Notes: generated from the letters alone by a model not told the origin. Shown: positions 4,633 to 33,004, counted from the stretch's first letter. The stretch is 64,000 nucleotides of DNA from Blastocatellia bacterium AA13 (GCA_003222245.1 QHVH01000031.1:24650-88649); one strand, 5' to 3'. Numbers and translations are program-made.

Positions 4633-6417
4633 ATGACTCGCCTCGATCCTATTCATAACGACACGCGAACCGGTTCTGCCGTTCGCGCGAACAAGTCGAA
4701 TTCGGATGACAAGAATTCTCCGAAGCAGGTCGTAGCCCTCCTCGACCTGTCCGGAAACAAAGAGCGCGCAGCGGCGTGGGCCGAGTCGGAATTCAATCCG
4801 CGGGCGATTCAATACATCAACAAGGCCGATCTCAAGGGCGGAGCCGCTCGCGAGATGCTGGCCTGTGTGAGAGCGCTGAACCCTCACACATTTGTGGTGT
4901 TCACTTCCGATCTCGACATGCAGAGCGCTCGCGGATCGTTGATGCTCCTGGCACTCTTGTCAGGCGCTCGCGAGATCGTTTTGGCGGACAGCTCCGGGCG
5001 CGTGGTTCGCAGATCGCGGATCGGCGCGGCCCTGGTTGAAGCGCCTCGCCTCGCGATTGAGATGCTGTGCGGATATGCACTGGTCCTTCCATTTTCGTGG
5101 CTGCTGGCAGCCGTGCTCGGGCTAGCCATGAGATTTCGCGAAATTATTCGAACAGACCACGCAATTCAAAGAAGGACCGTCGATCAATCAGGCTCATGCA
5201 ACATCCTCTACATTCGTGCGACTCTTTCAGTCTTGCAAGAAGGCGGCATGTCGACACACGTCGAGGGCTTTCAGGGCGGTATGCTCGCGCTGGGCCATAC
5301 GTTGACACACGTGGAAGTAGGACGCCCAAACGGAACGCCCGAAGTTTCCGGCGCGGCGGTCGGCAACATCTCGGATAGAGTGCGCATTGCTCCCTCGGCA
5401 TTGGTCGGGGCAACCAAGGCACTGTTCGAGCTTTGGAATAATCTGGTGTTCAGCGTTGCAGCGTTTCGATTATTTGACTCGCCGCGCGACTTCGATTTCA
5501 TATATCAGCGCTACAGCAGGTTCAACTTGACCGGCGTATTGCTGAGTCTAACGACGGGGCTTCCGCTTGCGCTCGAATTCAACGGCTCCGAAGTTTGGGT
5601 GAGCAAGCACTGGGATTCAATTGGGCAGATGCCGCTGTTACGGCAATTCGAAAGGCTGAATTTGAAAGCCGCTGACGCCGTCTTTGTTGTATCAGAGGCC
5701 ATGAAGAACTCTTTGACGGCGGAAGGCGTCGACGACGCTCGAATCATCGTCAATCCGAACGGTGTCAACACGGAGATATTCCGGCCTGATTGCGGAGGGC
5801 GGATGATTCGTGAAGAGCTCGCAATCGATGATCAGGTGGTAGCCGGTTTCGTCGGAACTTTCGGACCCTGGCATGGCGCTCCGGTATTCGCCGAGGCAGC
5901 GCGACTCGTAGCCCGGCAAGCGCGCTGCCATTTTCTTTTCGTCGGTGATGGAGACGAGCGCCCTGCTGCCGAACGAATATTGTCACAGCTCCGAATCGGC
6001 GCGTTTACTTTCACCGGGCGCATTCCACATGACAGGGTTCCGTCATATCTTGACGCGTGTGACATTCTGGTCTCGCCGCATGTGCCGTTGGCCGATGGAA
6101 GCGAGTTCTTCGGATCGCCGACAAAGTTATTCGAATATATGGCTATGGCTCGCGCTATCGTCGCCAGCCGTCTAGGCCAGATCGCCGACATTATCGAAGA
6201 CGGCAAGAGCGGTTTACTTGTAGAGCCGGGAGACGTCGCCGCGCTGGCGGGCGCAATCGAGCGACTCTCGAATGACAAGGAGTTTCGAATGGCTCTAGGA
6301 GCCAATGCCAGAGACGTAGTCGAGACCCAATACACGTGGAAAGCGAACGCGTCGCGCGTGGTTGAAACGATGCAGGTTATTGTTCCTGAAGGGGAACGAG
6401 TCAATAGCCGGGGGTGA
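4633..6417 (+). CDS. glycosyltransferase family 4 (GT-B fold) with an N-terminal extension
   Basis: The C-terminal half has GT1/GT4 features: GFVGTFGPWHG, an E-x7-E-like region and FLFVGDGDERP. I placed the start at ATG 4633 (MTRLDP) to avoid overlap with the upstream methyltransferase. The ORF track gives 4531. Confidence 0.7.
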   Translation: MTRLDPIHNDTRTGSAVRANKSNSDDKNSPKQVVALLDLSGNKERAAAWAESEFNPRAIQYINKADLKGGAAREMLACVRALNPHTFVVFTSDLDMQSARGSLMLLALLSGAREIVLADSSGRVVRRSRIGAALVEAPRLAIEMLCGYALVLPFSWLLAAVLGLAMRFREIIRTDHAIQRRTVDQSGSCNILYIRATLSVLQEGGMSTHVEGFQGGMLALGHTLTHVEVGRPNGTPEVSGAAVGNISDRVRIAPSALVGATKALFELWNNLVFSVAAFRLFDSPRDFDFIYQRYSRFNLTGVLLSLTTGLPLALEFNGSEVWVSKHWDSIGQMPLLRQFERLNLKAADAVFVVSEAMKNSLTAEGVDDARIIVNPNGVNTEIFRPDCGGRMIREELAIDDQVVAGFVGTFGPWHGAPVFAEAARLVARQARCHFLFVGDGDERPAAERILSQLRIGAFTFTGRIPHDRVPSYLDACDILVSPHVPLADGSEFFGSPTKLFEYMAMARAIVASRLGQIADIIEDGKSGLLVEPGDVAALAGAIERLSNDKEFRMALGANARDVVETQYTWKANASRVVETMQVIVPEGERVNSRG

Positions 6418-6502
6418 AGCGCAGCGCAGCCCCCGGTATGGTCGAAACTTCCCAATTCGGTGTTCCCTGAACGTAGCGCCAAAGGGCGCGAGCTATGACC
6501 CT

Positions 6503-18304: not shown

Positions 18305-18631
18305 CTATTGATTATCGGGCGCAGCGTGTGACACTGCATGCTCTGACGAATGATCCTGCTGCCGTTCGGAGTCTACCGATGTATTGCTCCGCGAGTAATG
18401 AAAGTCCCGTCCCCCGCCGCGGGGAAGAGAGACGGTCGAGATTGCGTGTTTGAAGATCAATTGTTCCTGCGAACCTGCTTCAAGAACGACCGAGAACTTG
18501 TCGAAGCTCTTAATCCTTCCGGTTAGTTTGACTCCGCTCATCAAGTAGATCGTGACGTTGCTGCGATCCCTGCGGGCACTATTTAGGAAACCGTCCTGAA
18601 TTGTGTTTTGTTGTTGTGCATTTTTGTCCAT
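18305..18631 (-). CDS. hfq: RNA chaperone Hfq
   Basis: Sm1/Sm2 motifs align along their length with E. coli Hfq: [56 protein letters not shown]. Confidence 0.85.
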
Positions 18632-19598
18632 GTTTATTCGTTCCCCATCGAAAGAGTTTCAAAGAGCACCTGAAAGCTAACACAGCGCAACAAATAACGG
18701 CAAGGCATCGCTCATGAACAGGCATCGCTCATGAATGAACGATGCGCGTCAAGCTTTCGCGGCACATAATAGTCTATCCATCGAGTTCCCAGTTCTCGAA
18801 GGTTGATGTCAAAGAGAAGTCGCATGCATTGAATGCTTAACTCGGGCTATAGATTGCCGCGCTACTGCGAAACTCGAAGTCACGTTACGCGAGGAGTATC
18901 GGTCTTCAAGCGACTAGCTCGGTCGAACATCTTGTCTCTCGAGCCAGGTCTGCAGGTTCAAACGTCCCAAGCCAAACAGACTGTCTCCTCCACCAATCCT
19001 TCTGCACTACGGTATCAGCCTGCTCCCTCGGGAACCCAGTCCACCCGCTGTATTTATTTTCGTCAGTAAGCCGAACTTAACTAAGGCCACTTCCCAGATA
19101 CATCACCGCGAGCAAGAGCAGCACTCTATTCAGTCCTCAACAGGCCAGCGGTACTGGGAGCAAACGAGGGCTACATTTTTCGTATCCAGAGGGTACATTT
19201 TTCGACCCGGGGGTCTATTTCTGTTACCCCGGCTCCATGTTCTCCGTCCAAAGACCGAGAGAGTTCGCCGCCAGCACCGCACCTCGCGCTCGTCAAAATG
19301 CCATCGTCGCGAACGCGCTCGGCTGGACTCGCATCTCGCTTACTCACGTCGTTCCGCATCGCTGACGAACTCTTCTTCGTAGTCTCGCGCAATAGCTCTT
19401 CGGACTTCGTGCTGGTATCTCGTCGAGCAGCTCGACTAACTGATGGACTGGGTAGTCTGGGCCACTTTGTCACCTTGATTAGGTGTACTAACAGCGGTAC
19501 GATTCTCCGCCGCTTTTATTGCGATCATTTGAAATTAAGCGCCCGCCCGCAACGATATGGAGTCGGAAACGAAGATAGGCATCGGCTAAGGAGGAGAC

Positions 19599-22439
19599 AT
19601 GTCGACCCAACCAAATCAAGGGGCTTTCCCGGGTGTTGAACTGGAGGGTGAATGGATAAAGGCTGATCAGTTCGACCCTAAGACCTGGGCCATAGCGGTC
19701 GCACAACGCCGATCGGTGGGGACTCACGTACCCGGTTACGGCGCTCCCGGGGCGCCAACAAAGAAGCTTGAAGGGCCTTGGTTCATTGGCGCGGACGAGC
19801 AGCGCGTTGCGGTCTACGAGGCTCCAAATCCTGACTTCGCGGCCAGCGTCGGGTTTGCGGGGTCGGCCGTTGTTGTGGAAAGCCAGAGCACACTTGTCGA
19901 AGGGCATCTGTTCATTCCAACCGACGGTGCGGAGGAAAAGGGGATCGCCGCTGATACCATCCGTGTCTTCCGTTGGGTGCCGGAGATGAAGGCGTTCCAA
20001 ATCGTCCTGCGCTCCGGTTCGCGCGACGATGTCTGGGCCTGGGCCGAGATCTCCACTCCCGGGATCTACGTTCCTATCGGGCTGCCACGCGATCCAATCG
20101 CCTCCCGGCTCCTGAAGATAGGTTGGATTCTTAGTGATCTTGCAAGCACCCGGCAGGAAATGCTTCCTGGTGATCTGTTGAAGGAGATTGGGTCAGCGCT
20201 GTTCAAAGGTCTAGAACCTGTCTTGCAAGATCTCGATCAGATCCCCAAACTCCGCGGGCCGGGTGCGCCAAACCCTGACCTGCCGACTTACTCGCACACA
20301 GACAAACGCGTGAATCCGGGGACTGTCATCGATGCGCTTGGCCACAGTCCGCGACCGCCGGAGTACCAGATCCTTGCCAATCCGTCCACGATTACCCGCC
20401 TTCAAGACCGATGGGAATTTGTAGGTCCACAGAATATCGGAGGCATGTCTCTTTCGGTAGTCCTCGACCCGAACGAGCCAGACCAGATCTACACGGCCAC
20501 ATCCAGTGGCGGCGTCCGGCGTCTTAGCAGTGTCTCCGACCATCCAAGCTCGTTCTGGGAGCTTGTTACCGATGGGCTTCCGTCTCAGCGCACTCAGGCT
20601 TTTGCAGTAGCCACGTCCGACGTCGGAGTGTGGTACGTGCAGATGAATAACGGTTGGCTATACCGCCACGACAGTCTCAGCGCCACGTGGTCTATAGTCA
20701 ATCGAGATGCTATCGGCAATGCCTGGCGAATCCTTGTCGATCCTAATACCGCCGACCGCGTCTACGTAGCGACGACAACCGGGTTGTGGCGCTCGGATAA
20801 CGGAGGCAGGACATGGGCGACGGGTGGCCCGCTCACACCCGGCGACGCAACTGATGTCGCCCTCGACCCGGTTAATCCGGACGTGATCTATGTTGCAGTC
20901 CGTGGCGTCGGACTGCGTAGGTCGTTTGTGCGCGGGCGGCCGGACAGTTGGTCCACCGTTATCGCTTGGGACTCAGGGCATGCGTACTGGACCGATCCCG
21001 CACGTATGACTACCGCGATGCGCATCGCGCTCGGCGTATCAGGCCCGCCGTCGGCCCGACGGATTGTTGCAAAGTTTGGTCAAGAAGTTTTCTACAATTC
21101 GTCAGGCGGTAACGGCGCGTGGGTGTCGCTAGGTATGGTGGGGGGACCGCAGCCCCTGCACGGAGCAGGGTACGACTTCGGGCAGGGTGACTGGGCTCAC
21201 GGCATCGCCATAGATCCGTTTGATGAGAACTTGATCCTTGCCGCGCAGGACATGTTGTATCGTCGGCGAGCGGATTCCAATGCAGGTTGGGAAATTGCGA
21301 TCCACTATTTCACGCCGCTTGAACAAGGCCATGCAGATTACCACGGGATCACCTTTGACCCGGCCCAGGAAGGTGTTGTCTACGTTGCCAACGACGGTGG
21401 CGTATACCGCTCCGACGATCACGGAGGCACGTGGAGGTCCCTTGCAGACGGCTTGAACACGCTCCAGTTCTGGTTTCATACCGGAATATCCGGCGGTGCG
21501 CTTCTGGGCGGCGCTTATCATCACGGGTTGATTGGGGCCGCGCGTCCCGAGAATCCGAACTGGCAAGTGCTCAGCGGCGGAGCTTGGGAGTTCTCTTCTG
21601 CGGTTTCCGACGCGCAACGCCCCGGCACGTTTTACGTCTTCAATACCCAGGAGCCGAGGAGCGGGATGCCGCGCGCGACGTTAAGGCGGATGCCGCACAG
21701 CACATCCGTAACACTGGAACTAGATCTGGAATGGGCAACTCTTCCAGGTGCTACGGCCACAGATCCTCGAGTAACCTTTAACACAGCCGCGGCTGCGATG
21801 GATCCCCGACCGGGTGTCTACACCATGCTTGCGGGGGGCCGTACAGGTTTGTATCGGACCGTCAATCGCATCGAGTACACCGGACAAGCTCCAATATGGA
21901 CGCTCGAAAGCCTTACCCTCGATTCCGGCGATAGCATCGTCTCCATCGCCTACTCGACGCCCCAGTCTGGTGGCCCGCCCATTGCTTATGTCCTGTCAGC
22001 ACGCGCTGTTGTATATCGCAACATGAACGTGGATGGCGGCGGAACTTGGGAACGCCGCGGGCAATGGCCAGGCGCAGATGCGCGTGAGATCGCTGTGAAC
22101 GTGTACGACCCGCAGCGGATTTATATCGTTGCTTGGAATGCTGGCGTGGCGCGGTCTACAGAGGGCGGCGGAGGAACTTTCGAGGTGATTGCGCCGCCCG
22201 ACAGCGGGCCCTTCCCGGCGGGCTCGAACTACAACTCCATCCTGCCACACCCAAACGCAGCGCGTACGCTGATTCTCGCGACCACTTTCGGCATTTACAT
22301 CTCTACGGACGAGGGTGGCAGGTGGCGGCAGTTTGGTGTGGGACTGCCAGATGTACACGTGGTGTCTGTCTTCATTTATGGCCAGTACTTGTATGCCGCC
22401 ACGCACGGATGCGGGTTATGGCGGCATTCTCTGACGTGA
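19599..22439 (+). CDS. BNR/Asp-box repeat protein (beta-propeller, sialidase/GH74/Ycf48-like fold) with a roughly 330-aa N-terminal domain of unknown function; no signal peptide
   Basis: At least 6 Asp-boxes: WRSDNGGRTW, YRSDDHGGTW, ARSTEGGGGTF, YISTDEGGRW and others. GGAGG sits 6 nt before the ATG at 19599. The N-terminus (MSTQPNQGAFPGVELEGEW) is hydrophilic. Confidence 0.8.
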   Translation: MSTQPNQGAFPGVELEGEWIKADQFDPKTWAIAVAQRRSVGTHVPGYGAPGAPTKKLEGPWFIGADEQRVAVYEAPNPDFAASVGFAGSAVVVESQSTLVEGHLFIPTDGAEEKGIAADTIRVFRWVPEMKAFQIVLRSGSRDDVWAWAEISTPGIYVPIGLPRDPIASRLLKIGWILSDLASTRQEMLPGDLLKEIGSALFKGLEPVLQDLDQIPKLRGPGAPNPDLPTYSHTDKRVNPGTVIDALGHSPRPPEYQILANPSTITRLQDRWEFVGPQNIGGMSLSVVLDPNEPDQIYTATSSGGVRRLSSVSDHPSSFWELVTDGLPSQRTQAFAVATSDVGVWYVQMNNGWLYRHDSLSATWSIVNRDAIGNAWRILVDPNTADRVYVATTTGLWRSDNGGRTWATGGPLTPGDATDVALDPVNPDVIYVAVRGVGLRRSFVRGRPDSWSTVIAWDSGHAYWTDPARMTTAMRIALGVSGPPSARRIVAKFGQEVFYNSSGGNGAWVSLGMVGGPQPLHGAGYDFGQGDWAHGIAIDPFDENLILAAQDMLYRRRADSNAGWEIAIHYFTPLEQGHADYHGITFDPAQEGVVYVANDGGVYRSDDHGGTWRSLADGLNTLQFWFHTGISGGALLGGAYHHGLIGAARPENPNWQVLSGGAWEFSSAVSDAQRPGTFYVFNTQEPRSGMPRATLRRMPHSTSVTLELDLEWATLPGATATDPRVTFNTAAAAMDPRPGVYTMLAGGRTGLYRTVNRIEYTGQAPIWTLESLTLDSGDSIVSIAYSTPQSGGPPIAYVLSARAVVYRNMNVDGGGTWERRGQWPGADAREIAVNVYDPQRIYIVAWNAGVARSTEGGGGTFEVIAPPDSGPFPAGSNYNSILPHPNAARTLILATTFGIYISTDEGGRWRQFGVGLPDVHVVSVFIYGQYLYAATHGCGLWRHSLT

Positions 22440-22927
22440 GATTGGTCAACCGCTATCCGCCTTGTCCGCCTCACGCGCTTAACTTTGGCTTCCAGCTGAC
22501 CTCGTACCTCGGCCGCTGAAAAGGCTGTCGTCGAGCATCATCGCTAGTAAAGTGACTTGCCCTAATCCGTCTCGAGACCTCTGGTCATCCAAAAAGTCGT
22601 ATTGATCATTCCTAGTCACGCACGCCCCGAGACGACAACAGAAAGGACGTCTCCGTTCATGCTCAGTATGTCTCGATTGTGATTGGAACGTAGCTTGCCC
22701 TCTCACCTGGCCAATGAGCGGCTTTCGCTTTAGCAACAATCTCAGCCTTCTCTCGCTGGGACCCGGCCGAGATAGTCATCGTACCAGCAAACAATACTTT
22801 GCTGTCGCCGACGACTTCTTACGCAAGCTCTTTCCCGAACTCACTCCGCACCGGTTGCCTTGTCCAGGATATCTCACCGTATTCATCACTGATGATGTAG
22901 TCCACTGACTCACAAGGAGAACTCGCT

Positions 22928-23480
22928 GTGTTGAACAGATCTCAAATCGAGAACGACAACCCGCTATCGCGACCGCTTCTAATTCCAGCACCAAGCGTGA
23001 TGCGCTGCGACTCGCTTCCATTTACCGGGACCCTCAAGATGTTCGCACTGTTATTCACCTCGCGCGCAACGGCATCGTTCTCACTCTCCTGCTGCTCATA
23101 AGCAGTGTCGGCAATTTCTATCAGTACTATCGCAGGCCGGACCGCATAGTAGTCGATAGATCGAGTGGCCGCGTTGTTGAAATCAATGACCGTTACTACG
23201 GCGAAACCGAAGCTGTCCAACTCGGCCCCGAGCACCTGACGGACGCCGACAAGAAGTACATCGCTTCCGAGTTCGTTCGCTCCCTCTACCAGATCGATCC
23301 AGCCACCAGATCTAAAGACATCGAGCGTGCCCTCAGGATGATGCTCCCCGACTCTGCTTTGAAATTCGCACGCTATTGAAGCAGGACAACATCCTCGACA
23401 AGCAGCTCCAAGAAAGCTGGCAAGGGACTTGGACCGCCCAAGACATCACCGTCGATTCCAAAGACCGCTACACCCTAGCT
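22928..23480 (+). pseudogene. VirB8/TrbF-like type IV secretion component remnant (frameshifted, internal stop)
   Basis: GTG at 22928 is preceded by AAGGAG. The VirB8-like body (TVIHLARNGIVLTLLLLISSVGNFYQYYRRPDRIVVDRSSGRVVEINDRYYGETEAV...) is in a different frame, and there is a second frame break near 23378 and an in-frame TAG near 23480. Confidence 0.35.
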
Positions 23481-23674
23481 TAGCTAAGGGTTCTCGGTCG
23501 ACAAGACATCCACCGATTGGATAACGGCGGCACGCTTGATGAGCCTCGCCAGCTCAGCCTTTCACTCAAGCTCATTGCAGACCCCAAAGGCAGGGCGGAC
23601 CGCAATCTCCGCTCTGGCTTTCTCATTTCCAGTTTTGAGTACAAGGAAATCCAGTAGAACCGAAAAGGAGACTT

Positions 23675-24400
23675 ATGCATTCCGCCAAGGACGCAACGAC
23701 TTTGATTCTTCTTGCGCTCATTGCGTGTCCGACCCTCGCGCTCACGCAGAACAAAAGCAGATCGCAGAGGTTGAAACACTCGCCGGCGCGAACGAGCAGC
23801 ACCGATGAGCTTTCAATCCCTTCGGTTTCCCTCGTCTCTGGAACGCCGGAGTATCTTTCGGGGGAGGCCAATGTCACTGTCAAAGGAAACGAGAATCCCA
23901 TCATCCGTCTCGGCCTGGCAACGTCCGGCGTGACTCTTGTGGAGTTTCCCGCCGCTGACAGATTCTTCGCTCTCCATCCGGGCAACTCTGAGATGGTGGT
24001 TACGATCGACGAGTCCCCCACAAAACAAAACGATCACTTCTTCGTCTTCAGAGCAGGAAGTAACTGTGTTTCACCTCCCGCAGCGAGTTCTTCTACGGGT
24101 CCCGCTGCCTCCATCATCGCGCAAATGGGCTCGGGCATGGTCGTCACTTTTCTTATTTATCCCGTTCGCGAACTCTCACAAATGGCGCACCGCGTAGTCG
24201 TTCTCTATGACCGCGTAGCGGTGGTAGCCGCCCGACGCGCGGCTGGGCTCGCCGTCAATCTCGAAGAGAAAGAGCAAGAACGACAGGAGGGGTCAATAAG
24301 GATTGCCCCCGCGACCGAGCGCTCAAGCACGTCCACGCAGTCCGGCAGCACCAAACGACCAGTCTCGAGATGTAGGCCTGACGGGCCGACTATAAAATAG
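23675..24400 (+). CDS. secreted hypothetical protein (possible VirB9/TrbG-like remnant)
   Basis: Signal peptide MHSAKDATTLILLALIACPTLALTQ. It lies directly downstream of the VirB8-like remnant. The assignment rests on position and length alone. Confidence 0.4.
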   Translation: MHSAKDATTLILLALIACPTLALTQNKSRSQRLKHSPARTSSTDELSIPSVSLVSGTPEYLSGEANVTVKGNENPIIRLGLATSGVTLVEFPAADRFFALHPGNSEMVVTIDESPTKQNDHFFVFRAGSNCVSPPAASSSTGPAASIIAQMGSGMVVTFLIYPVRELSQMAHRVVVLYDRVAVVAARRAAGLAVNLEEKEQERQEGSIRIAPATERSSTSTQSGSTKRPVSRCRPDGPTIK

Positions 24401-24648
24401 CCATCAGGGGCAAGCGCGTAGCGCGCCGCCCCTGGTCACGGCCCCCACACCCCTCTAGCGCTGAAGGCGCGACATAAGCGCTTCATTGCCGCGCTGCGCA
24501 AAAATTAACCATTTCTTGCGAAACGTTCACTTCGCACCTTTCAGTGCTCCGAGCCCTCATCTATTTCCGAGGATAATTACTGGGCCTTCATTCGCTCGCG
24601 CGCCTATAAAACCTGCGCCTTGGTATCCGAAAATATTTAAACTCCCGG

Positions 24649-24739
24649 GTTCCCTCGGAAACACCTTCTCTCTTCGTACCGGGGGCTGCGCTTCGCTGGC
24701 CCGCGGCTACTGACGCGTTCCCTTTCAGGGAACAATCCC
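24649..24739. repeat. solo copy of a roughly 114-bp two-hairpin repeat (same family as the tandem array at 28590-28900)
   Basis: TCTTCGTACCGGGGGCTGCGCTTCGCTGGCCCGCGGCTACTGACGCGTTCCCTTTCAGGGAACAATCCC is about 90% identical to the array units. It contains the CCGGGGG..CCCCCGG and GTTCCCT-TTC-AGGGAAC hairpins. Confidence 0.7.
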
Positions 24740-24778
24740 AAAATTCATTCAAGCTATGTTGTCACAACGACACCTGGT

Positions 24779-25852
24779 TTACTTGATCGAACTACACTTG
24801 AAAGATGCCGGATACGAAGCCACATAGAATCTAGCCATCGGGGGAGTATCCTTTAAGAAACTGGTCCCATTGAATGAACGCTCGATTAGATCACGGTTTG
24901 CTTTGAGTGTGTAGTCGATAAACTTCGCGGTCACATCGCCGCTTTCTTTGGCGTTCATGTCAAACATTTTCACCGGAGTACCGCAGGAGTAATCAAACGC
25001 TTTGATGTCGACCGACTTGATTTGCGGACTCTGCAACGTGCGAAAGTAAATGCGGCTGCGCTTCTGATCGTAGACAATGCTCCATTGCGTCCACGTGTCG
25101 CTCCGATTCGTCTGCGCGACATCACTCAAGACTTCGAAAGCATAGGCGACCGCTTGCTCGTCGGTTAATGGCCGCTTCTCGAACTCTTTCGTTTTCTTGA
25201 CAGCCCGCGTGAAGCGATCAAGCGACTCGTTTGAGTTGGCTTTCGCAACATCGGTGTGCTTCGCGTAATTCAGGGAATTATCGTAGGTGTCGTTGGTCAA
25301 AGTCGGCGTGGCAAGGCTTGCCCCCGTATGCACAATCATCATGCCTTTGAGAAATTCGATCGAGGCCGTGTTCCCGGCCTTGTCATTGATCAGGTAATGG
25401 ACTTTGACGTCGGACTCGATGCGCAGACCTTCGGCATTCTTGATGGCCTCGGCGGTTGTGGCGGAGTTGTCGAGCAAATACTGAATCCATTCCTGTGTGC
25501 CCACGGCGGATCGCGCGTCGACTTTCGGATACGCTGTATCGCTGAGCCACATTTGTTCGACAACCAGGCCCGCCTCATTCATGCCGCCGGTTGGATTCTC
25601 GCGTCCGTATTGATTAAAAGTTACGCTGCCGTATTTTGAGAGCCATTTCGCGCCGTTGTCAGAGTCAATGATCGTTGCGGTCTTAGCGACCCCGCGTTTG
25701 TTGACTAGTACCAGCGCGTCACCAATCGTCCAATCATAATTTCGTCCGAACAGAACCTCGCCCTTACCGTGCAGGCAGAACGTCGTGCAGGCAAACGCCT
25801 GATTAAGAAGGAGCGATAGGAGAGTGAATGTTAGACACGTAAGTTCTTTCAT
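24779..25852 (-). CDS. secreted Ntn-hydrolase, choloylglycine hydrolase / linear amide C-N hydrolase (penicillin V acylase-like) family
   Basis: Signal peptide MKELTCLTFTLLSLLLNQAFA is followed immediately by Cys (CTTFCLHGKG), the N-terminal nucleophile expected in this family. RNYDW and NEAG motifs are present. The start is set at MKEL (25852). The ORF track extends to 25966. Confidence 0.7.
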   Translation of the reverse strand: MKELTCLTFTLLSLLLNQAFACTTFCLHGKGEVLFGRNYDWTIGDALVLVNKRGVAKTATIIDSDNGAKWLSKYGSVTFNQYGRENPTGGMNEAGLVVEQMWLSDTAYPKVDARSAVGTQEWIQYLLDNSATTAEAIKNAEGLRIESDVKVHYLINDKAGNTASIEFLKGMMIVHTGASLATPTLTNDTYDNSLNYAKHTDVAKANSNESLDRFTRAVKKTKEFEKRPLTDEQAVAYAFEVLSDVAQTNRSDTWTQWSIVYDQKRSRIYFRTLQSPQIKSVDIKAFDYSCGTPVKMFDMNAKESGDVTAKFIDYTLKANRDLIERSFNGTSFLKDTPPMARFYVASYPASFKCSSIK

Positions 25853-26285
25853 AATTGATTCTTCCGATGCCGGGATAAAGCCGGCTGGTTGCATTGAATC
25901 AAAGTCCTCACACGTCGAGGTTTCCATCTTGGAGCACGGCTGCGGGGCCTGAGAAGGATTCGGCAATCAAGACATCGGGAGCACGATCCAACTTCGTGGC
26001 GAGTACGTCGGACAGCTCGCGGTAAGTGCGAGATGGCGCCCAAGGGACCGCGACGACGTGCGAACTTGCCCATTCGGGCTGGCGAGCGACGAAGCCGCTG
26101 ATGGTTGTCCCGAAGGGACAATCGGCAATAGCCCACCAGTTCACTGGTGGGTTCGTCGGGTAATTTGATCGAGAAGTGCCGAAGGCACGGCTGACTTGTT
26201 GTTTCAGAGCGCCGCAAGAGGACCACGCACATATTGCAGATTTCCGATGTGGTTCAAAGCCTCCACATACGAACTACATCAGCCG

Positions 26286-26522
26286 TCCCTTCGGGACTAG
26301 ATCGCCGCAGCGCTCTGGGACCCACCGATGAATCGGTGGGCTACTTTCAGACGATCCCTACGGGATTGACGTCTCTGCGCCAAAAATCTCTAATGGCCAA
26401 ACTCCAGCCACCGATGAATCGGCGGGCTCGAGCTTGGACAATGGCGGACCTGGGAGCGCAGGCATCTTGCCTGCTTCCCCCACCGATGAATCGGTGGGCT
26501 ATTAATCGAGCATCCCTTTGGG
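26286..26522. repeat. cluster of six short perfect hairpins, including three copies of CCCACCGAT-GAA-ATCGGTGGG
   Basis: The six hairpins are:
- GTCCC-TTC-GGGAC at 26286-26298.
- CCCACCGATGAATCGGTGGG at 26321-26340.
- ATCCC-TAC-GGGAT near 26355-26367.
- CCACCGATGAATCGGCGG at 26408-26425 (one mismatch).
- CCCACCGATGAATCGGTGGG at 26479-26498.
- CATCCC-TTT-GGGATG at 26508-26522. Confidence 0.6.
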
Positions 26523-26587
26523 ATGCCAATCGATCTGGTATATCCACTGATCTGGGACGCTGATCTCGGGTGTCAACTGACGGAGAG

Positions 26588-26848
26588 TTATGCCGCCGAC
26601 TGCTGATCGATTTCCCAGCCAGGAAATACAAGCACCGCCGGATGGCACTTGAGCGCGCGAGCCAGAATCTTGGCCCGCTCCAACCCTAGTCTTACGCGAT
26701 CATTCTCGATTGCCGAGATAGTCGACTGTGGTATGCCGGTTAGCTCGGCGAGTTGATTCTGACTCAGATACTGAAGCTCTCTAATGATCCGCACAGATTC
26801 GCCCACTGACACCTTCATACGACGCTTTGCAGAACGAAACTGACTCAT
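26588..26848 (-). CDS. XRE-family helix-turn-helix transcriptional regulator
   Basis: HTH_3 signature: IRELQYLSQNQLAELTGIPQSTISAIENDRVRLGLERAKILARAL. Confidence 0.7.
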   Translation of the reverse strand: MSQFRSAKRRMKVSVGESVRIIRELQYLSQNQLAELTGIPQSTISAIENDRVRLGLERAKILARALKCHPAVLVFPGWEIDQQSAA

Positions 26849-26900
26849 CTAAGGCCTCCGATCGTGTCGGATGTCAGTGTCTATGAGGGTGGAGATCAAG

Positions 26901-27164
26901 TTACTTTACCCCCTCGGATTCACGCAGGTTCCGGACCCATGCGGTGCTGTCCCGCATGTCGTCGCGATCTTGCCACATCCCTATGAACCGTTCATCGTGT
27001 AATTCAGAGCCCGCCGGTTGCGTGGCGGGCCGGCGTCCACCATACCGCTGATGCAAGTATGCAACAAATCCTTCCACCTCCCGTAGGGCTTCTTGTGGCA
27101 AAGAACGTATCTCGCGCAATATCTCATCAGGTGTCATGGTTCCTCCACCGACATTTTCTCTCAT
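26901..27164 (-). CDS. DUF2281-like small protein (putative orphan antitoxin-type addiction module component)
   Basis: MTPDEILREIRSLPQEALREVEGFVAYLHQRY, then a C-terminal ...MWQDRDDMRD tail, as in small antitoxin-like proteins. No cognate toxin gene is adjacent. The start could be the internal Met at about 27137. Confidence 0.45.
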   Translation of the reverse strand: MRENVGGGTMTPDEILREIRSLPQEALREVEGFVAYLHQRYGGRRPATQPAGSELHDERFIGMWQDRDDMRDSTAWVRNLRESEGVK

Positions 27165-27287
27165 TCGAAAGAGATGTCAACCTGAGCGGCCAACCGACTT
27201 GCGTCACCGGGCCGCGCATGCCAAGACAACCAGGGGAACGAATCGGCGTAATGGGAAAACTACCTGCGCGGCTCGTTCCTAAATCTC

Positions 27288-27508
27288 TCAGTTGTGTGAG
27301 AGGTCACTATTCTCTTCTATAAGTTTCGTTTTGCCTTGTTTGAATTCGGCCAAGGCTTCCTTCGCAAGGAATGCTAGCTTGTCCTGTGAATTAGCGAATG
27401 CGTCCGCCCAACGCCCCTCTGAGGCAAGATCACTCAGCAGCATTTCGGCAAACGCATCCTGATCCTCGCCCTGGGAGTCGGGACGCTTCTTCGAATGCCT
27501 TCTCCAGA
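27288..27508 (-). pseudogene. ParD/RelB-like antitoxin gene with a frameshift (orphan)
   Basis: Hand translation of the minus strand gives MTKLLEKAFEEASRLP in one frame. The rest, (Q)GEDQDAFAEMLLSDLASEGRWADAFANSQDKLAFLAKEALAEFKQGKTKLIEENSDL, is in the +1 frame. It was not called by the ORF track. Confidence 0.35.
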
Positions 27509-27701
27509 AGTTTGGTCATTTGTCTTATCACCTCGCCGGCAACTTGAATCAGAAACTTATCGAACTTTTGGCGTCGAGCACCATCGATTCAGAGATTGCA
27601 CAACGTTGGAATGAGCCGCAGCGGGCGGTATGCGGAACACGGAAAGAAAAGGGCCGCATCATGAACAGGACTACTGCCCGCGCTCCAGTTCCAACCGTGA
27701 G

Positions 27702-28016
27702 TTATGCGACGTTCAGTGGCTTGATTCGGTCAATCTTCCTCTTGGCGGATCGAGTCGCTTCCCAAAGGTCCAGCGCGCGCTGGGCATTGAGCCAGAATTC
27801 AGGCGAATTACCGAACAACCGCGAGAGGCGGAGGGCCATTTCCGGGCTGACAGCCCGCCGCTCGCGAAGCAACTCGTTGATTGTTTGGCGAGAGACCCCC
27901 AGTGCTTCAGCAAGGGCCGAGACCGTCAGGCCGAAGTCCGGCATGAAGTCCTCACGAAGCATCTCGCCCGGATGCGTCGGACGAACCTGCCTCTCTCCAA
28001 CGTTCACAATGCTCAT
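27702..28016 (-). CDS. higA: HigA-type antitoxin (XRE-HTH addiction module antidote protein)
   Basis: MLREDFMPDFGLTVSALAEALGVSRQTINELLRERRAVSPEMALRLSRLFGNSPEFWLNAQ is the canonical HigA/VapI signature. The gene lies 14 nt downstream of the toxin gene. Confidence 0.8.
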   Translation of the reverse strand: MSIVNVGERQVRPTHPGEMLREDFMPDFGLTVSALAEALGVSRQTINELLRERRAVSPEMALRLSRLFGNSPEFWLNAQRALDLWEATRSAKRKIDRIKPLNVA

Positions 28017-28029
28017 GCAACACCTCGTC

Positions 28030-28311
28030 TCAATGGTAGTCGGTCAGTTCCACATCGTAAGCATCACCGTCGACGAACCGAAAGCAGATGCGCCACTGAT
28101 CGTTGACAGCAATGGAATGTTGTCCCTTCCGCTCCTGCTTGAGTTCATGAAGGCGGTTGCTAGGAGGAACCTTCAAGTCGCCCAAGTGGGTCGCGAGGTC
28201 AAGGTATTCGAGCTTGCGCGTCGCACGCCTCGCGATATCCGGAGGAAACCGTCGCGACTCGCCAGTTGCATACAGCTCTTGCGTTTGGCGGTTCGCGAAC
28301 GTCTTGATCAC
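28030..28311 (-). CDS. higB: HigB-type toxin (RelE/ParE superfamily plasmid-maintenance killer protein)
   Basis: 93 aa beginning MIKTFANRQTQELYATG..., with ...HELKQERKGQHSIAVNDQWRICFRF. The toxin-first, antitoxin-second order is typical of higBA. Confidence 0.8.
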   Translation of the reverse strand: MIKTFANRQTQELYATGESRRFPPDIARRATRKLEYLDLATHLGDLKVPPSNRLHELKQERKGQHSIAVNDQWRICFRFVDGDAYDVELTDYH

Positions 28312-28589
28312 TGGTCAACTCTGATCTGTCACGTGATGCGTGTCAAGCCAGGAGACATCAAAGTAGCATAACGCCAGCGTCACCGGGCCGCGCATACCAA
28401 GATAATCAGGGAAACGAATCGGCGTAATGGGAAAACTACCTGCGCGCGGCTCCGGTGCACGCGGAGTTGGGCATCTGTCCACAATTGCGACAGTATCCGG
28501 TCGTATTCCGCATGGGTGTCTATCCAGAACCACACTATCGTATCGTCGGACTTTGCTCCGAGTGCTCGCCACCCTATGCCTGAGAACGG

Positions 28590-28900
28590 CTTGGGCGGGG
28601 AATCAAATCCTCCCTCGCACCGGGGGCTGCGCTTCGCTGACCCCCGGCTACTGGCGCGTTCCCTTTCAGGGAACAATCCCAAGAAAAAGATTCAAATCCC
28701 TGCGTTCGTTCTGGAACCAAATGCTCCCTCGCACCGGGGGCTGCGCTTCGCTCGCCCCCGGCTACTGACGCGTTCCCGTTCAGGGAACAATCTGAAATTA
28801 TCCAACCTTCGATGTTTCTCGTTCTGGAAATAAATTCTCCTTCGTACCGGGGGCTGCGCTTCGCTGGCCCGCTGCTATCCCGCTAGTCCCGGTAGCGTGT
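28590..28900. repeat. tandem array (about 2.7 copies, 114-bp period) of a novel two-hairpin repeat
   Basis: Unit starts fall at about 28611, 28725 and 28839. The core is TCCCTCGCACCGGGGGCTGCGCTTCGCTGACCCCCGGCTACTGGCGCGTTCCCTTTCAGGGAACAATC. The third copy diverges after CGCTTCGCTGGCCC. The inter-core segments share CGTTCTGGAA. Confidence 0.75.
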
Positions 28901-28963
28901 TGATTGACGGTATTCGAGTCAGAGAATAGAATCTTCCCGGCTCTGAGTGGATACGGAGGCCGA

Positions 28964-30997: not shown

Positions 30998-33004
30998 ATG
31001 AACAGAGACGCTTCAAATTTTCTCCCCGTAATCATGCTGGGATTCATCGCATTCGTAATCCTGGTCTACATACTGCGCAAAATTCTAGTCAACGTAGGCG
31101 CGAGAGAGATCGCTATTAAAGAGCGGCGCTACTTTGGCAGGCGGATGCCGCCCGGCCGAGTCGTCGCCACTGAAGGCGAGGTGGGTATTCAGGCAGACGT
31201 GCTGAAACCCGGTCTTCACGTCATCAAATATCCTTTCGAGCGCGTCGTGCGCAAAGTGCCGCTCATCGAAATCAGAACCGATGAAATAGGCGTGGTCGAA
31301 GCGGTTGACGGCGATCCCCTTCCCCCGGGCCGGGTGTTCGCCCCCGATCGAGCGCAAAACGCTCACAATAACTTCCAGGACCCCATTGCTTTTATCAAAA
31401 GGGGCGGCGTAAAAGGCATTCAGTTGAGAACGCTCCCGCCGGGCTTATGGCCGATTCACCCTTATCTGTTCAGGCTTTCGATATCCAAAGTGACTATGAT
31501 CCCTCCCGGAAAAATCGGAGTAGTCACCACCGCCGACGGCGCTCCGCTGGATGCCGGGCGGCTGCTGGGCAAGGCTGCGCCGGGACATCTCAATTTTCAG
31601 GACGCGGAACAATTCATTTCGGGCGGCGGACAGAAAGGGTCTCAGGTCGAGATATTGACCCCCGGCACATATCGAATCCTGACGGACTCGATTCCCATCG
31701 ACGCCAGTCAGGGCGAGCGCAAGCCGGGGCTCTTCACGGTGCGCCTGTACGAGGCAACGGTCATCGGCGAGAATCAGGTGGCGCTTGTCGAAGCTGTCGA
31801 TGGCTCGCCGCTCAACCCGCGCGACTACGTTGCGGCGACGCTCGACGGCCATGACAATTTTCAGGACGGGCACGAGTTCATCGCTCGCGGAGGGCAGCGC
31901 GGTCCCGCGGCTGAAGCCGCCAAACGCCTGGATAAGCTCGGCGAAGACGATCGCACAATGAAGGAGATCGAAGAAGAGATTATGTCGACCGATCCGGCCG
32001 ATCGGCGGCTTGATGAAGGCGCGCACGAGGCCTATGTCGTTCCCGACGGCTACAGAGGCATACAGGAAACCGTAGTCGGGCCGGGCCGGTACTACGTCAA
32101 CACTCTCGCGATCACGCCGATAATCATTCCGACTACCAATCAGACCGTTGAATGGACCTCCGGAGAGGTCGCCAACACCTTCAATCCGTTTGAAGTCATC
32201 TCCAAGGACGGCTTCTCGATGCAGCTCGAGGTACGCGTCGTATTCCGGGTGAAGCCCGAAGACGCTCCGTTCATGGTGGCGAAGATCGGCTCGATCGACC
32301 GCCTTATTCAAAACGTGATGCATCCGCTGATCGATTCGATTTTCCGCAACCAGGCTTCTGAATCGTCCGCGATGGCCTATCTGCAAAATCGACACGAAGA
32401 GCAGGAGCGGGCTGAGGCTCGGGTTCGCGCTCATCTGCTCAAGTACCACGTCGACGTGGTAAACGTCTTAATCTGTCACATACATCTTCCGGAAGAGTTG
32501 ATGAAGACTCAGACCGAGAAGATTCTCGCCGAGCAGCGACAGAACATGTTCAACGCTCAACGCGAAGCGGAACAGAAGCGCATCGAGCTCGAAAAGACTC
32601 GCGCTCACGCCGACAACCAGCGTGACTTAATGGCGGCAACCGTGGGCGTCGAGATCGCAGGCAAACGCGCGGAGCAGCGCAAGGCCGAGGGTGATGGCGA
32701 GGCCCACTACATTCTTGCTACCGGCAAGGCGGAAGCCGAAAAGGTAAGGCTGATGGGAGAGGCGCAGGGTGTCGCATATCGCGAACAGGTCGCGGCTCTC
32801 GGCGCGCAAGGTGTTTCGGTGATCGAAACGCTTCGAGTCATCGGCGAGAAAAACGTTCGCATAACTCCTGACGTATTGGCGTCGGGAGGCGGCTCGGGAG
32901 ACGGAACAGGCGGGCTCGGGACGCTGCTGCTGTTGAATCTCTTCCGCGAAAAGATCACGGGATCGCCAACATCGGACAACGGCAGCATGCTTGCTGGAAA
33001 GTAA
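30998..33004 (+). CDS. SPFH/band-7 (flotillin-like) membrane protein with three N-terminal NFQD-containing repeats and a C-terminal coiled-coil
   Basis: N-terminal transmembrane helix (FLPVIMLGFIAFVILVYIL). Three repeats of about 95 aa each carry NFQD...F(I/A).GG..G.Q...L.PG.Y. An SPFH-like block follows (EVRVVFRVKPEDAPFMVAKIGSIDRLIQNVMHPLIDSIFRN), then an EA-rich coiled-coil. Confidence 0.7.
   Translation: MNRDASNFLPVIMLGFIAFVILVYILRKILVNVGAREIAIKERRYFGRRMPPGRVVATEGEVGIQADVLKPGLHVIKYPFERVVRKVPLIEIRTDEIGVVEAVDGDPLPPGRVFAPDRAQNAHNNFQDPIAFIKRGGVKGIQLRTLPPGLWPIHPYLFRLSISKVTMIPPGKIGVVTTADGAPLDAGRLLGKAAPGHLNFQDAEQFISGGGQKGSQVEILTPGTYRILTDSIPIDASQGERKPGLFTVRLYEATVIGENQVALVEAVDGSPLNPRDYVAATLDGHDNFQDGHEFIARGGQRGPAAEAAKRLDKLGEDDRTMKEIEEEIMSTDPADRRLDEGAHEAYVVPDGYRGIQETVVGPGRYYVNTLAITPIIIPTTNQTVEWTSGEVANTFNPFEVISKDGFSMQLEVRVVFRVKPEDAPFMVAKIGSIDRLIQNVMHPLIDSIFRNQASESSAMAYLQNRHEEQERAEARVRAHLLKYHVDVVNVLICHIHLPEELMKTQTEKILAEQRQNMFNAQREAEQKRIELEKTRAHADNQRDLMAATVGVEIAGKRAEQRKAEGDGEAHYILATGKAEAEKVRLMGEAQGVAYREQVAALGAQGVSVIETLRVIGEKNVRITPDVLASGGGSGDGTGGLGTLLLLNLFREKITGSPTSDNGSMLAGK

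Follow-up and report, generated by a model that had tools for sequence, protein, structure and literature searches.

A probable composite scar beside hfq in Blastocatellia bacterium AA13: remnant of a decayed conjugative element and an adjoining strain-variable toxin-antitoxin patch

We analyzed a 64,000-nucleotide (nt) stretch of the genome of Blastocatellia bacterium AA13 (hereafter, the window), with positions 22440-28900 as the region in question. An initial annotation had read this region as a decayed island of mobile DNA carrying remnants of a type IV secretion system (T4SS), toxin-antitoxin (TA) genes, an XRE regulator, and a secreted N-terminal nucleophile (Ntn) hydrolase. Comparison with related loci indicates that the region is probably a composite scar, not a working system, in which the remnant of a decayed conjugative element (18837-24350) adjoins a strain-variable patch of TA genes and repeats. 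The proposal of a decayed conjugative island survives for the remnants at 18837-24350; nothing links 24351-28900 to the element. The left border had been placed at 22440, with an intact gene for a BNR/sortilin-like β-propeller protein outside the island. By sequence alignment, the element scar instead begins at 18837, upstream of the BNR gene, which occupies a cargo slot within the element.

The element remnant and its parent family

Backbone homology to conjugative loci of Blastocatellia relatives lies on both sides of the BNR gene (19599-22439, plus strand; 946 amino acids [aa]). Handles such as L003 denote the individual loci and metagenome contigs compared with the window. On the left, 18837-19540 aligns by blastn with L003 2876-3264 and L023 1043-1748 at 81-82% DNA identity (82% for L023). 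This segment comprises the last ~78 codons of a gene for an SLT/VirB1-like lytic transglycosylase (18837-19069, plus strand; blastn and alignment with L003) and non-coding backbone 3' of that gene (19070-19540), whose homology stops 59 nt short of the BNR start codon. The open reading frame (ORF) at 18833-19069 corresponds to the C-terminal 78 residues of the 225-aa SLT protein of L003 (Pfam SLT, E=1.2e-23); the 5' part of the SLT gene and the entire divergent VirB4 arm are absent from the window. On the right, homology resumes 90 nt past the BNR stop codon, and 22530-24350 matches the backbones of L003, L022, and L023 at 86-88% DNA identity, with a sharp right end at 24347-24352 in three relatives.

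The genes of the right-hand segment are damaged. The orthologue of a ~66-aa backbone gene (22714-22908, plus strand) is still open, but alignment with L022 3685-3885, L023, and L003 reveals one extra nt at 22746 and one missing nt at 22783, which together scramble ~12 codons, along with the loss of 6 nt near the end. The VirB8-like gene that follows (22928-23657, plus strand; GTG start with AAGGAG upstream, stop at 23655-23657) is a pseudogene, in keeping with its initial description as broken by frameshifts. Relative to the intact 240-aa orthologue of L003, single nucleotides are missing at 22965 and 23376, and 9 extra nt at 23474-23482 place a TAG in frame (23481-23483); the frame-corrected protein is 90% identical to the L003 protein. 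Because all independent contigs covering the gene are 99.96-100% identical to the window (L017 and L018 are identical to it throughout the gene, L016 matches at 99.96% over the same length, and L020 at 100% from 23295 onward), the lesions are not artifacts of assembly.

Assignment of this gene to the VirB8 family draws on several lines of evidence. Against the Pfam VirB8 hidden Markov model (HMM; PF04335, gathering score 23.2 bits), the frame-corrected window protein scores 17.7 bits (E=3.4e-3), and other orthologues likewise fall below the cutoff (L003, 21.4 bits, E=2.6e-4; L005, 15.7 bits, E=0.014). A profile search against PDB sequences returned no match. By inspection, a hydrophobic stretch, GIVLTLLLLISSVGNF, is visible near the N-terminus, and a single-sequence AlphaFold 2 model of low confidence (mean predicted local distance difference test score, 49.5) consists of helices followed by β-strands. 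In a Foldseek search of the PDB with this low-confidence model, ranks 1-13 were VirB8-family chains, with E values of 3e-3 to 1 and low template modeling scores; they include chains from the R388 T4SS (8rtd, 8rta), pKM101 TraE, Brucella and Agrobacterium VirB8, and Bartonella TrwG. The intact orthologues (L003, L005, L022, L023) lie inside a cluster with VirB4 and coupling protein genes, which are deleted in the window. These signals agree, all of them below curated thresholds, and make a VirB8 identity plausible.

The next gene (23675-24400, plus strand) retains the N-terminal ~225 residues, with a signal-like N-terminus, of a ~420-aa protein family. Homology ends at 24350, a truncation point internal to six independent metagenome contigs (L016-L021), and the last ~16 codons are unrelated read-through. 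A protein search with the 241-aa ORF retrieved 616 homologues, nearly all of 390-420 aa and from Blastocatellia, none of which has a Pfam domain. The metagenome-assembled genome of Blastocatellia bacterium AA13 encodes a protein with exactly the sequence of this ORF. The ORF had been proposed as a secreted VirB9-like protein; it is actually the truncated N-terminal half of an uncharacterized protein of the conjugative cluster. Searches for VirB9/CagX/TrbG (PF03524) gave no Pfam or NCBIfam match for the window ORF at E values up to 10, nor for full-length relatives at E values up to 0.1 (Pfam) or 1 (NCBIfam), and a 36-sequence profile of the family found no T4SS match among PDB sequences. The C-terminal domain of the family, absent from the window copy, was confidently modelled as a generic immunoglobulin-like sandwich with no VirB9/CagX among its top fold matches; the N-terminal part retained in the window was modelled too poorly to compare. 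In relatives, the gene sits between the VirB8-like gene and a TrbI/TraM-like gene for a 545-aa protein. This location between VirB8-like and VirB10-type genes and the signal-like N-terminus fit VirB9, but position alone is insufficient, and with the HMMs and the PDB profile negative the label is not supported.

Public assemblies (L016-L018) also call a 97-aa ORF at 22942-23235 (minus strand), antisense to the VirB8-like pseudogene and without a family match, which is almost certainly a spurious gene call. An annotation correction is warranted for two ORFs called in public assemblies that do not appear to be genes, the 97-aa antisense ORF and the 241-aa truncated gene.

The conserved gene cluster in which homologues of the ~420-aa protein reside (contexts L003, L005, L022, and L023) provides the template against which the window was read. 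One arm begins with the SLT lytic transglycosylase gene, a variable slot, the 66-aa gene, and the 240-256-aa VirB8-like gene, and continues with the ~420-aa gene, the 545-aa protein (weak TrbI/TraM matches), an AAA_5 ATPase, and a 236-aa gene. Last in this arm is a VirD4/TraG-type coupling protein (T4SS-DNA_transf, TrwB_AAD_bind, TraG-D_C), beyond which a Relaxase/MobL protein (PF03432) is encoded in L005. The divergent arm encodes two small membrane-type proteins at the VirB2/3 positions and a 944-951-aa ATPase that matches TIGR00929 VirB4_CagE (E=4e-14) and TIGR02746 TraC (E=9e-15), at ~52-54 bits versus cutoffs above 560 bits. Most other cluster proteins lack a Pfam match, and sequence searches with the VirB4 and VirB8-like proteins of the relatives gave no match among PDB sequences. 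The cluster is a conjugative apparatus, very divergent from known systems.

Little of this apparatus is left in the window. A Pfam scan of 36 window ORFs, most of the long ones included, found no recombinase, relaxase, or transposase domain; a coupling protein and a VirB4 ATPase were likewise absent from the ORFs scanned and were seen only in relatives. A search of the window found no tRNA. The att-like direct repeats that had been proposed as a check are absent from either candidate border, beyond the interspersed repeat families. The absence of a recombinase, relaxase, and tRNA attachment site, noted at the outset, is thus borne out within this scope. Because every transfer function is missing, the remnant presumably can neither transfer nor excise.

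The slot between the SLT and VirB8-like genes varies among relatives. It holds a Pkinase-helicase fusion and a PLD-like (PLDc_2) protein in L003; DACNV, MtlR, and AAA_33 genes in L022; three other genes in L023; and only a 59-aa ORF in L005. Defense-like cargo lies at 3507-8761 in L003, 1-3549 in L022, and 1789-4753 in L023 (with DUF4160 in the last). In this element family, the slot is likely a hotspot for anti-phage genes.

In the window, the slot is filled by the intact BNR gene. Since backbone flanks this gene and the slot holds unrelated genes elsewhere, the gene is best read as cargo of the element. The protein matches NCBIfam F510_1955 (E=5e-23), with a weak Pfam Sortilin-Vps10 match. 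Scans of genome and metagenome contigs for relatives were pattern-seeded and by design detect close relatives only; besides the same organism, none of the relatives they returned exceeded 27% identity over more than 35 residues. The genome collection yielded only Bacteroidota loci at 23-25% identity, and the metagenomes only the same organism and distant matches. By tetranucleotide distance, the sole strong outlier nearby is 19-23 kb, the BNR gene (z ~3), which also ranks first across the whole window. This odd composition and the lack of close relatives in the pattern-seeded scans fit the cargo reading. The BNR gene is probably horizontally acquired cargo that has outlived its vehicle, and its intactness suggests that it has been kept by selection.

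Decay of this kind is not confined to the window. Contigs L031 and L032 (ERZ27314210 k119_91092 and ERZ923218 k127_273403) carry a second, independently decayed copy of the element from another genome. In this copy, the ~420-aa gene is broken into parts of 307 and 103 aa and the coupling protein into parts of 270 and 342 aa; its left side has no called SLT or VirB4 genes. Such decay therefore recurs in the element family.

The divergence of the cluster raises the question of its classification. The parent element may belong to a Blastocatellia-wide conjugative lineage whose mating apparatus is remote enough from the eight described mating-pair formation (MPF) classes to count as a new class, a proposal we regard as tentative and on balance doubtful. 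In its favor are the VirB4 scores of ~52-54 bits, the sub-threshold VirB8 and VirB10 analogues, and the ~420-aa, 236-aa, 186-aa, 66-aa, and VirB2/3-position proteins, which have no recognizable family. Were it true, decaying copies would be numerous, the window would hold one of them, and the cargo gene there would have been domesticated.

TA genes, repeats, and the Ntn hydrolase at 24351-28900

As had been noted, every intact gene from the repeat site at 24658 to that at 28599 is on the minus strand; the TA genes in this interval are in different states. The higBA pair is intact, as first annotated: the toxin gene higB (28030-28311, minus strand; PF05015 HigB-like_toxin, E=3.6e-18, 66.3 bits versus 27, full model) comes first, and the antitoxin gene higA (27702-28016, minus strand; TIGR02607, E=2.1e-33, 114 bits versus 47.7) lies 13 nt away, with both HMM matches above threshold.

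Comparison with a strain variant, L015, clarifies the TA genes that are not intact. An XRE/HTH_3 antitoxin-type gene (26588-26848, minus strand; HTH_3, E=1.6e-15) had been taken for a regulator. In L015, a 93-aa protein that matches TIGR02385 RelE_StbE (30.1 versus a cutoff of 27.9 bits) abuts the XRE start codon. Homology between the window and L015 breaks at ~26863, and 26849-26863 (minus strand) preserves the last 4 codons of the lost RelE/StbE toxin gene. Judged by this comparison, the XRE gene is the orphaned antitoxin half of a RelE/StbE-XRE pair; the helix-turn-helix assignment stands, and the regulator role gives way to that of an antitoxin whose toxin is present in L015. Where the window has the adjacent segment, 26864-27200, L015 carries the RelE-like toxin gene and an ORF of 117-139 aa. 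This segment of the window includes a lone DUF2281/VapB-like small gene with no adjacent PIN toxin (26901-27164, minus strand), as the orphan DUF2281-like call had it; the match is weak (E=4.2e-5; 24.5 bits versus a gathering score of 26.5), as is that to NF050009 TA_VapB.

Compared with L015, a further antitoxin-like gene of 76 aa (27288-27519, minus strand) has one extra nucleotide, at 27472, that shifts its frame; its called product is 76 aa in L015 and L010 versus 51 aa in window-type assemblies. Neither the window fragment nor the intact L015 version has a Pfam or NCBIfam match. The reported frameshift is therefore real, and the ParD-like label attached to the gene was dropped for lack of HMM support. 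Within the ORF at 28380-28682, positions 28470-28560 (minus strand) encode '...DDTIVWFWIDTHAEYDRIL', which we take to resemble the C-terminus of an E. coli-type HigB (PF09907-like); this putative further toxin remnant, lying upstream of higBA, had no NCBIfam match.

The hairpin-dense segment described earlier resolves into copies of Acido-Lenti-1 (RF01687), a motif without known function (Weinberg et al. 2010; PMC2864571). Full copies lie at 26106-26151 (minus strand), 26321-26367 (plus strand), and 26479-26525 (plus strand), and a pattern search located a partial copy with the first hairpin only at 26408-26428 (plus strand). Two of the full copies score 41.8 and 37.4 bits, above the gathering score of 37, and the third scores 33.7 bits, below it. 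An Rfam scan of five related loci found no Acido-Lenti-1. Several metagenome contigs (L015, L017, L018, L019) end inside or beside the cluster at 26106-26525.

Two other repeat families are present. A ~114-nt two-hairpin interspersed repeat, located by repeat search, occurs as a solitary copy at 24658-24737 (plus strand), as three tandem units at 28599-28905 (plus strand) directly upstream of a DUF7986 gene, and as a further copy at 6379-6438 (minus strand). At 28599-28905, the repeat core is matched once in L012 and three times in most assemblies, with a different spacing in L010; the difference in unit number is either real strain variation or assembly collapse. A 70-nt direct repeat, found only in loci of this organism, has copies at 27201-27270, on the edge of the strain-variable segment, and at 28377-28446 (94% identical to the first). 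It extends up to 84 nt when aligned against L015 and lies 3' of two antitoxin/toxin remnants.

Another gene of the patch encodes an exported Ntn hydrolase of the choloylglycine hydrolase/penicillin V acylase family (24779-25927, minus strand; CBAH HMM and 5J9R alignment). The protein matches Pfam CBAH (PF02275; E=1.1e-16, 61.8 bits versus a gathering score of 20.4) and aligns over ~280 residues with PDB chain 5J9R (E=9.5e-28); NCBIfam equivalog cutoffs were not reached. Cys60 of the 395-aa ORF starting at 25966 aligns with residue 1 of the mature 5J9R chain, and the preceding residues resemble, by inspection, a signal peptide. The enzyme family and cysteine nucleophile thus agree with the initial annotation, which had also named this gene as the only obvious cargo. 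That status is not supported. With 3991 homologues, the family grades smoothly in identity across Blastocatellia and Pyrinomonadaceae, and the 88% and 71% homologues (L024 and L026) have neighbors unrelated to conjugation, with DNA homology ending at the ends of the coding sequence (CDS).

Formation of the region and alternative explanations

In the sequence of events that we favor, an integrative conjugative element (ICE) of a common Blastocatellia lineage would have inserted beside hfq. Deletions took away, on one side, the 5' part of the SLT gene and the divergent arm with its VirB2/3-position and VirB4 genes and, on the other, everything past codon ~225 of the ~420-aa gene, including the TrbI/TraM-like gene, AAA ATPase, coupling protein, and relaxase. 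The remaining backbone genes then gained frameshifts and a stop codon, and the BNR gene in the cargo slot is still intact. The patch at 24351-28900 is a low-density, repeat-rich, recombination-prone segment in which TA genes have been gained, orphaned, and inactivated among co-occurring strains. Its material comprises the Ntn hydrolase, interspersed hairpin repeats, and type II TA genes in differing states of decay, with the intact higBA pair presumably self-maintaining.

The left flank of the scar carries housekeeping genes (aspartokinase, homoserine dehydrogenase, RDD protein, thymidylate kinase, and hfq), the last of which (18305-18631, minus strand) lies ~200 nt left of 18837. On the right, the DUF7986 gene (28904/28964-30256) stands directly 3' of the tandem 114-nt units and remains paired with its 227-aa neighbor in distant Blastocatellia; farther right are genes for an SPFH protein, a CN-hydrolase, gatC, and a second BNR protein. 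Within 22440-28900, intact CDS make up 35% of the sequence. In a greedy estimate from ORFs of at least 100 aa, coding density is 0.53 within the region versus 0.91 outside, which bears out the drop noted at first.

Several observations weigh against this account. The GC content of 22440-28900 is 0.5485 versus 0.559 for the window, with several other stretches lower still, and both GC and tetranucleotide composition of 22.4-28.9 kb are ordinary; the lower GC seen by eye does not set the region apart, and in the suggested k-mer check only the BNR gene stands out. An empty site is not demonstrable: the nearest DUF7986-bearing genomes have only 43-61% protein identity, gene order around the DUF7986 gene is not conserved, and the long contigs L008 and L009, which carry DUF7986 homologues, have only that gene and its downstream neighbor in common with the window. 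For intact elements, an integrase and attachment site were not seen within the flanks examined. The VirB8 membership is a matter of several weak, concordant, sub-threshold signals; of the two HMM checks proposed for the region, VirB8 gave a consistent result of this kind and VirB9 none. The BNR gene could have entered its slot after the element decayed. Finally, 24351-28900 has no homology to four element loci by blastn, tblastn, or tblastx.

In the strongest rival explanation, ~18.8-28.9 kb as a whole is a single decayed element. The Ntn, XRE, and TA genes would once have served it as accessory or maintenance modules, and the deletion at 24350 would fall within the element and not mark its edge. 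We consider this quite possible, at somewhat less than an even chance. The parts are adjacent, coding density is low throughout, and strain-level variability is typical of accessory DNA. Just past its transfer genes, L003 has TA-type genes (a faint PIN match and a 76-aa gene), and the conserved DUF7986 and 227-aa genes begin right after 28900. Against these stand the missing tblastx and blastn homology to the four element loci, the smooth identity gradient of the Ntn family with the non-conjugative contexts of L024 and L026, the ordinary composition, and the lack of terminal repeats.

An alternative for the patch is that 24.7-28.9 kb is an integrase-less integron-type cassette array (CALIN), with the 70-nt and 114-nt repeats as attC sites. 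TA cassettes are typical of chromosomal integrons; all genes of the patch are co-oriented on the minus strand, and the 70-nt repeat, which follows two gene remnants on their 3' side, falls on an edge of the strain-variable segment. We nonetheless consider the array very improbable. No IntI or other recombinase was found among the window ORFs scanned, and no R''/R' core sites were seen by eye. In three of four folding tests, the 70-nt repeat was not significantly better folded than shuffled sequence (z of -0.1 and -0.9 for one copy on the gene strand and the other, and -2.3 for the second copy), a weak test based on folding. The 114-nt units stand in tandem and recur at other places in the window in the manner of a generic interspersed repeat, and the variable segment has its other edge within a toxin gene and not at a repeat.

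That the T4SS-like fragments are a degenerate copy of a chromosomal, clade-wide Blastocatellia secretion or uptake apparatus would suit a family so common in Blastocatellia (616 matches) with most components lacking a Pfam match, but it is highly unlikely given the relaxase (PF03432/MobL) and VirD4/TraG-type coupling protein in the relatives' cluster, the variable cargo slots with defense-type genes, the flanking genes that differ in every genome, and the existence of independently decayed copies.

Two observations concern the flanks of the composite scar. A perfect 17-nt tandem duplication (AGGCATCGCTCATGAAC, 1.9 copies) occupies 18703-18735, in the interval from the start of hfq to the point where the element's left deletion ends. 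At 31905/31906, inside the SPFH/Band_7 gene (30998-33004), all other covering assemblies (L010-L016) have ~198-217 bp extra, and the product is 668 aa in the window versus 722-740 aa in those assemblies; the difference reflects either a true deletion in the AA13 genome or the collapse of a repeat in its assembly.

Comparison with known systems

To our knowledge, conjugation has hardly been studied in soil Blastocatellia, and the remnant points to an abundant, uncharacterized conjugative-element family there. A framework for conjugation and T4SSs was reportedly provided by Guglielmini and colleagues in 2011. For the comparison below, we refer to the conjugation and T4SS framework of Guglielmini et al. 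2012 (PMC3548315); in the passages of that survey consulted, the sole acidobacterial T4SS noted is one MPF_T system. The window also offers a clean natural case of an element whose backbone decayed while its cargo was kept, and of TA turnover between co-occurring strains.

The individual components resemble described families to different degrees. With VirB8/TrbF/TraE proteins (PF04335), the VirB8-like gene shares a length of ~240 aa, an N-terminal hydrophobic segment, helices followed by β-sheet in a low-confidence model, and a position just before the outer-membrane-complex genes; it differs in that all scores lie below the curated cutoff and the window copy is a pseudogene. The higBA pair appears to be a standard HigBA type II TA system, with the toxin gene first, adjacent genes, and full-length matches to both HMMs, and we see no notable difference. 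The Ntn hydrolase shares with Gram-negative periplasmic penicillin V acylases and choloylglycine hydrolases (5J9R, 4WL2) the Ntn fold family and a nucleophile cysteine after the signal peptide, but the relationship is at the family level and not that of a close orthologue; candidate substrates would be bile salts, penicillin V, or acyl-homoserine lactones. The Acido-Lenti-1 copies follow the two-hairpin consensus of RF01687, with two above the gathering score; unlike a single small RNA gene, they number 3 full and 1 partial in 420 nt in both orientations, more in the manner of an interspersed repeat of the repetitive extragenic palindromic type.

As a whole, the remnant resembles degenerate ICEs, in which leftover mating-pair formation genes carry frameshifts and truncations, the integrase, relaxase, coupling protein, and VirB4 have been lost, a cargo gene is kept, and TA modules adjoin. 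It differs in that the components of its parent element are very remote from the curated models tested. A decayed island is an ordinary phenomenon; the wider interest lies in the parent element family and its distance from curated T4SS models.

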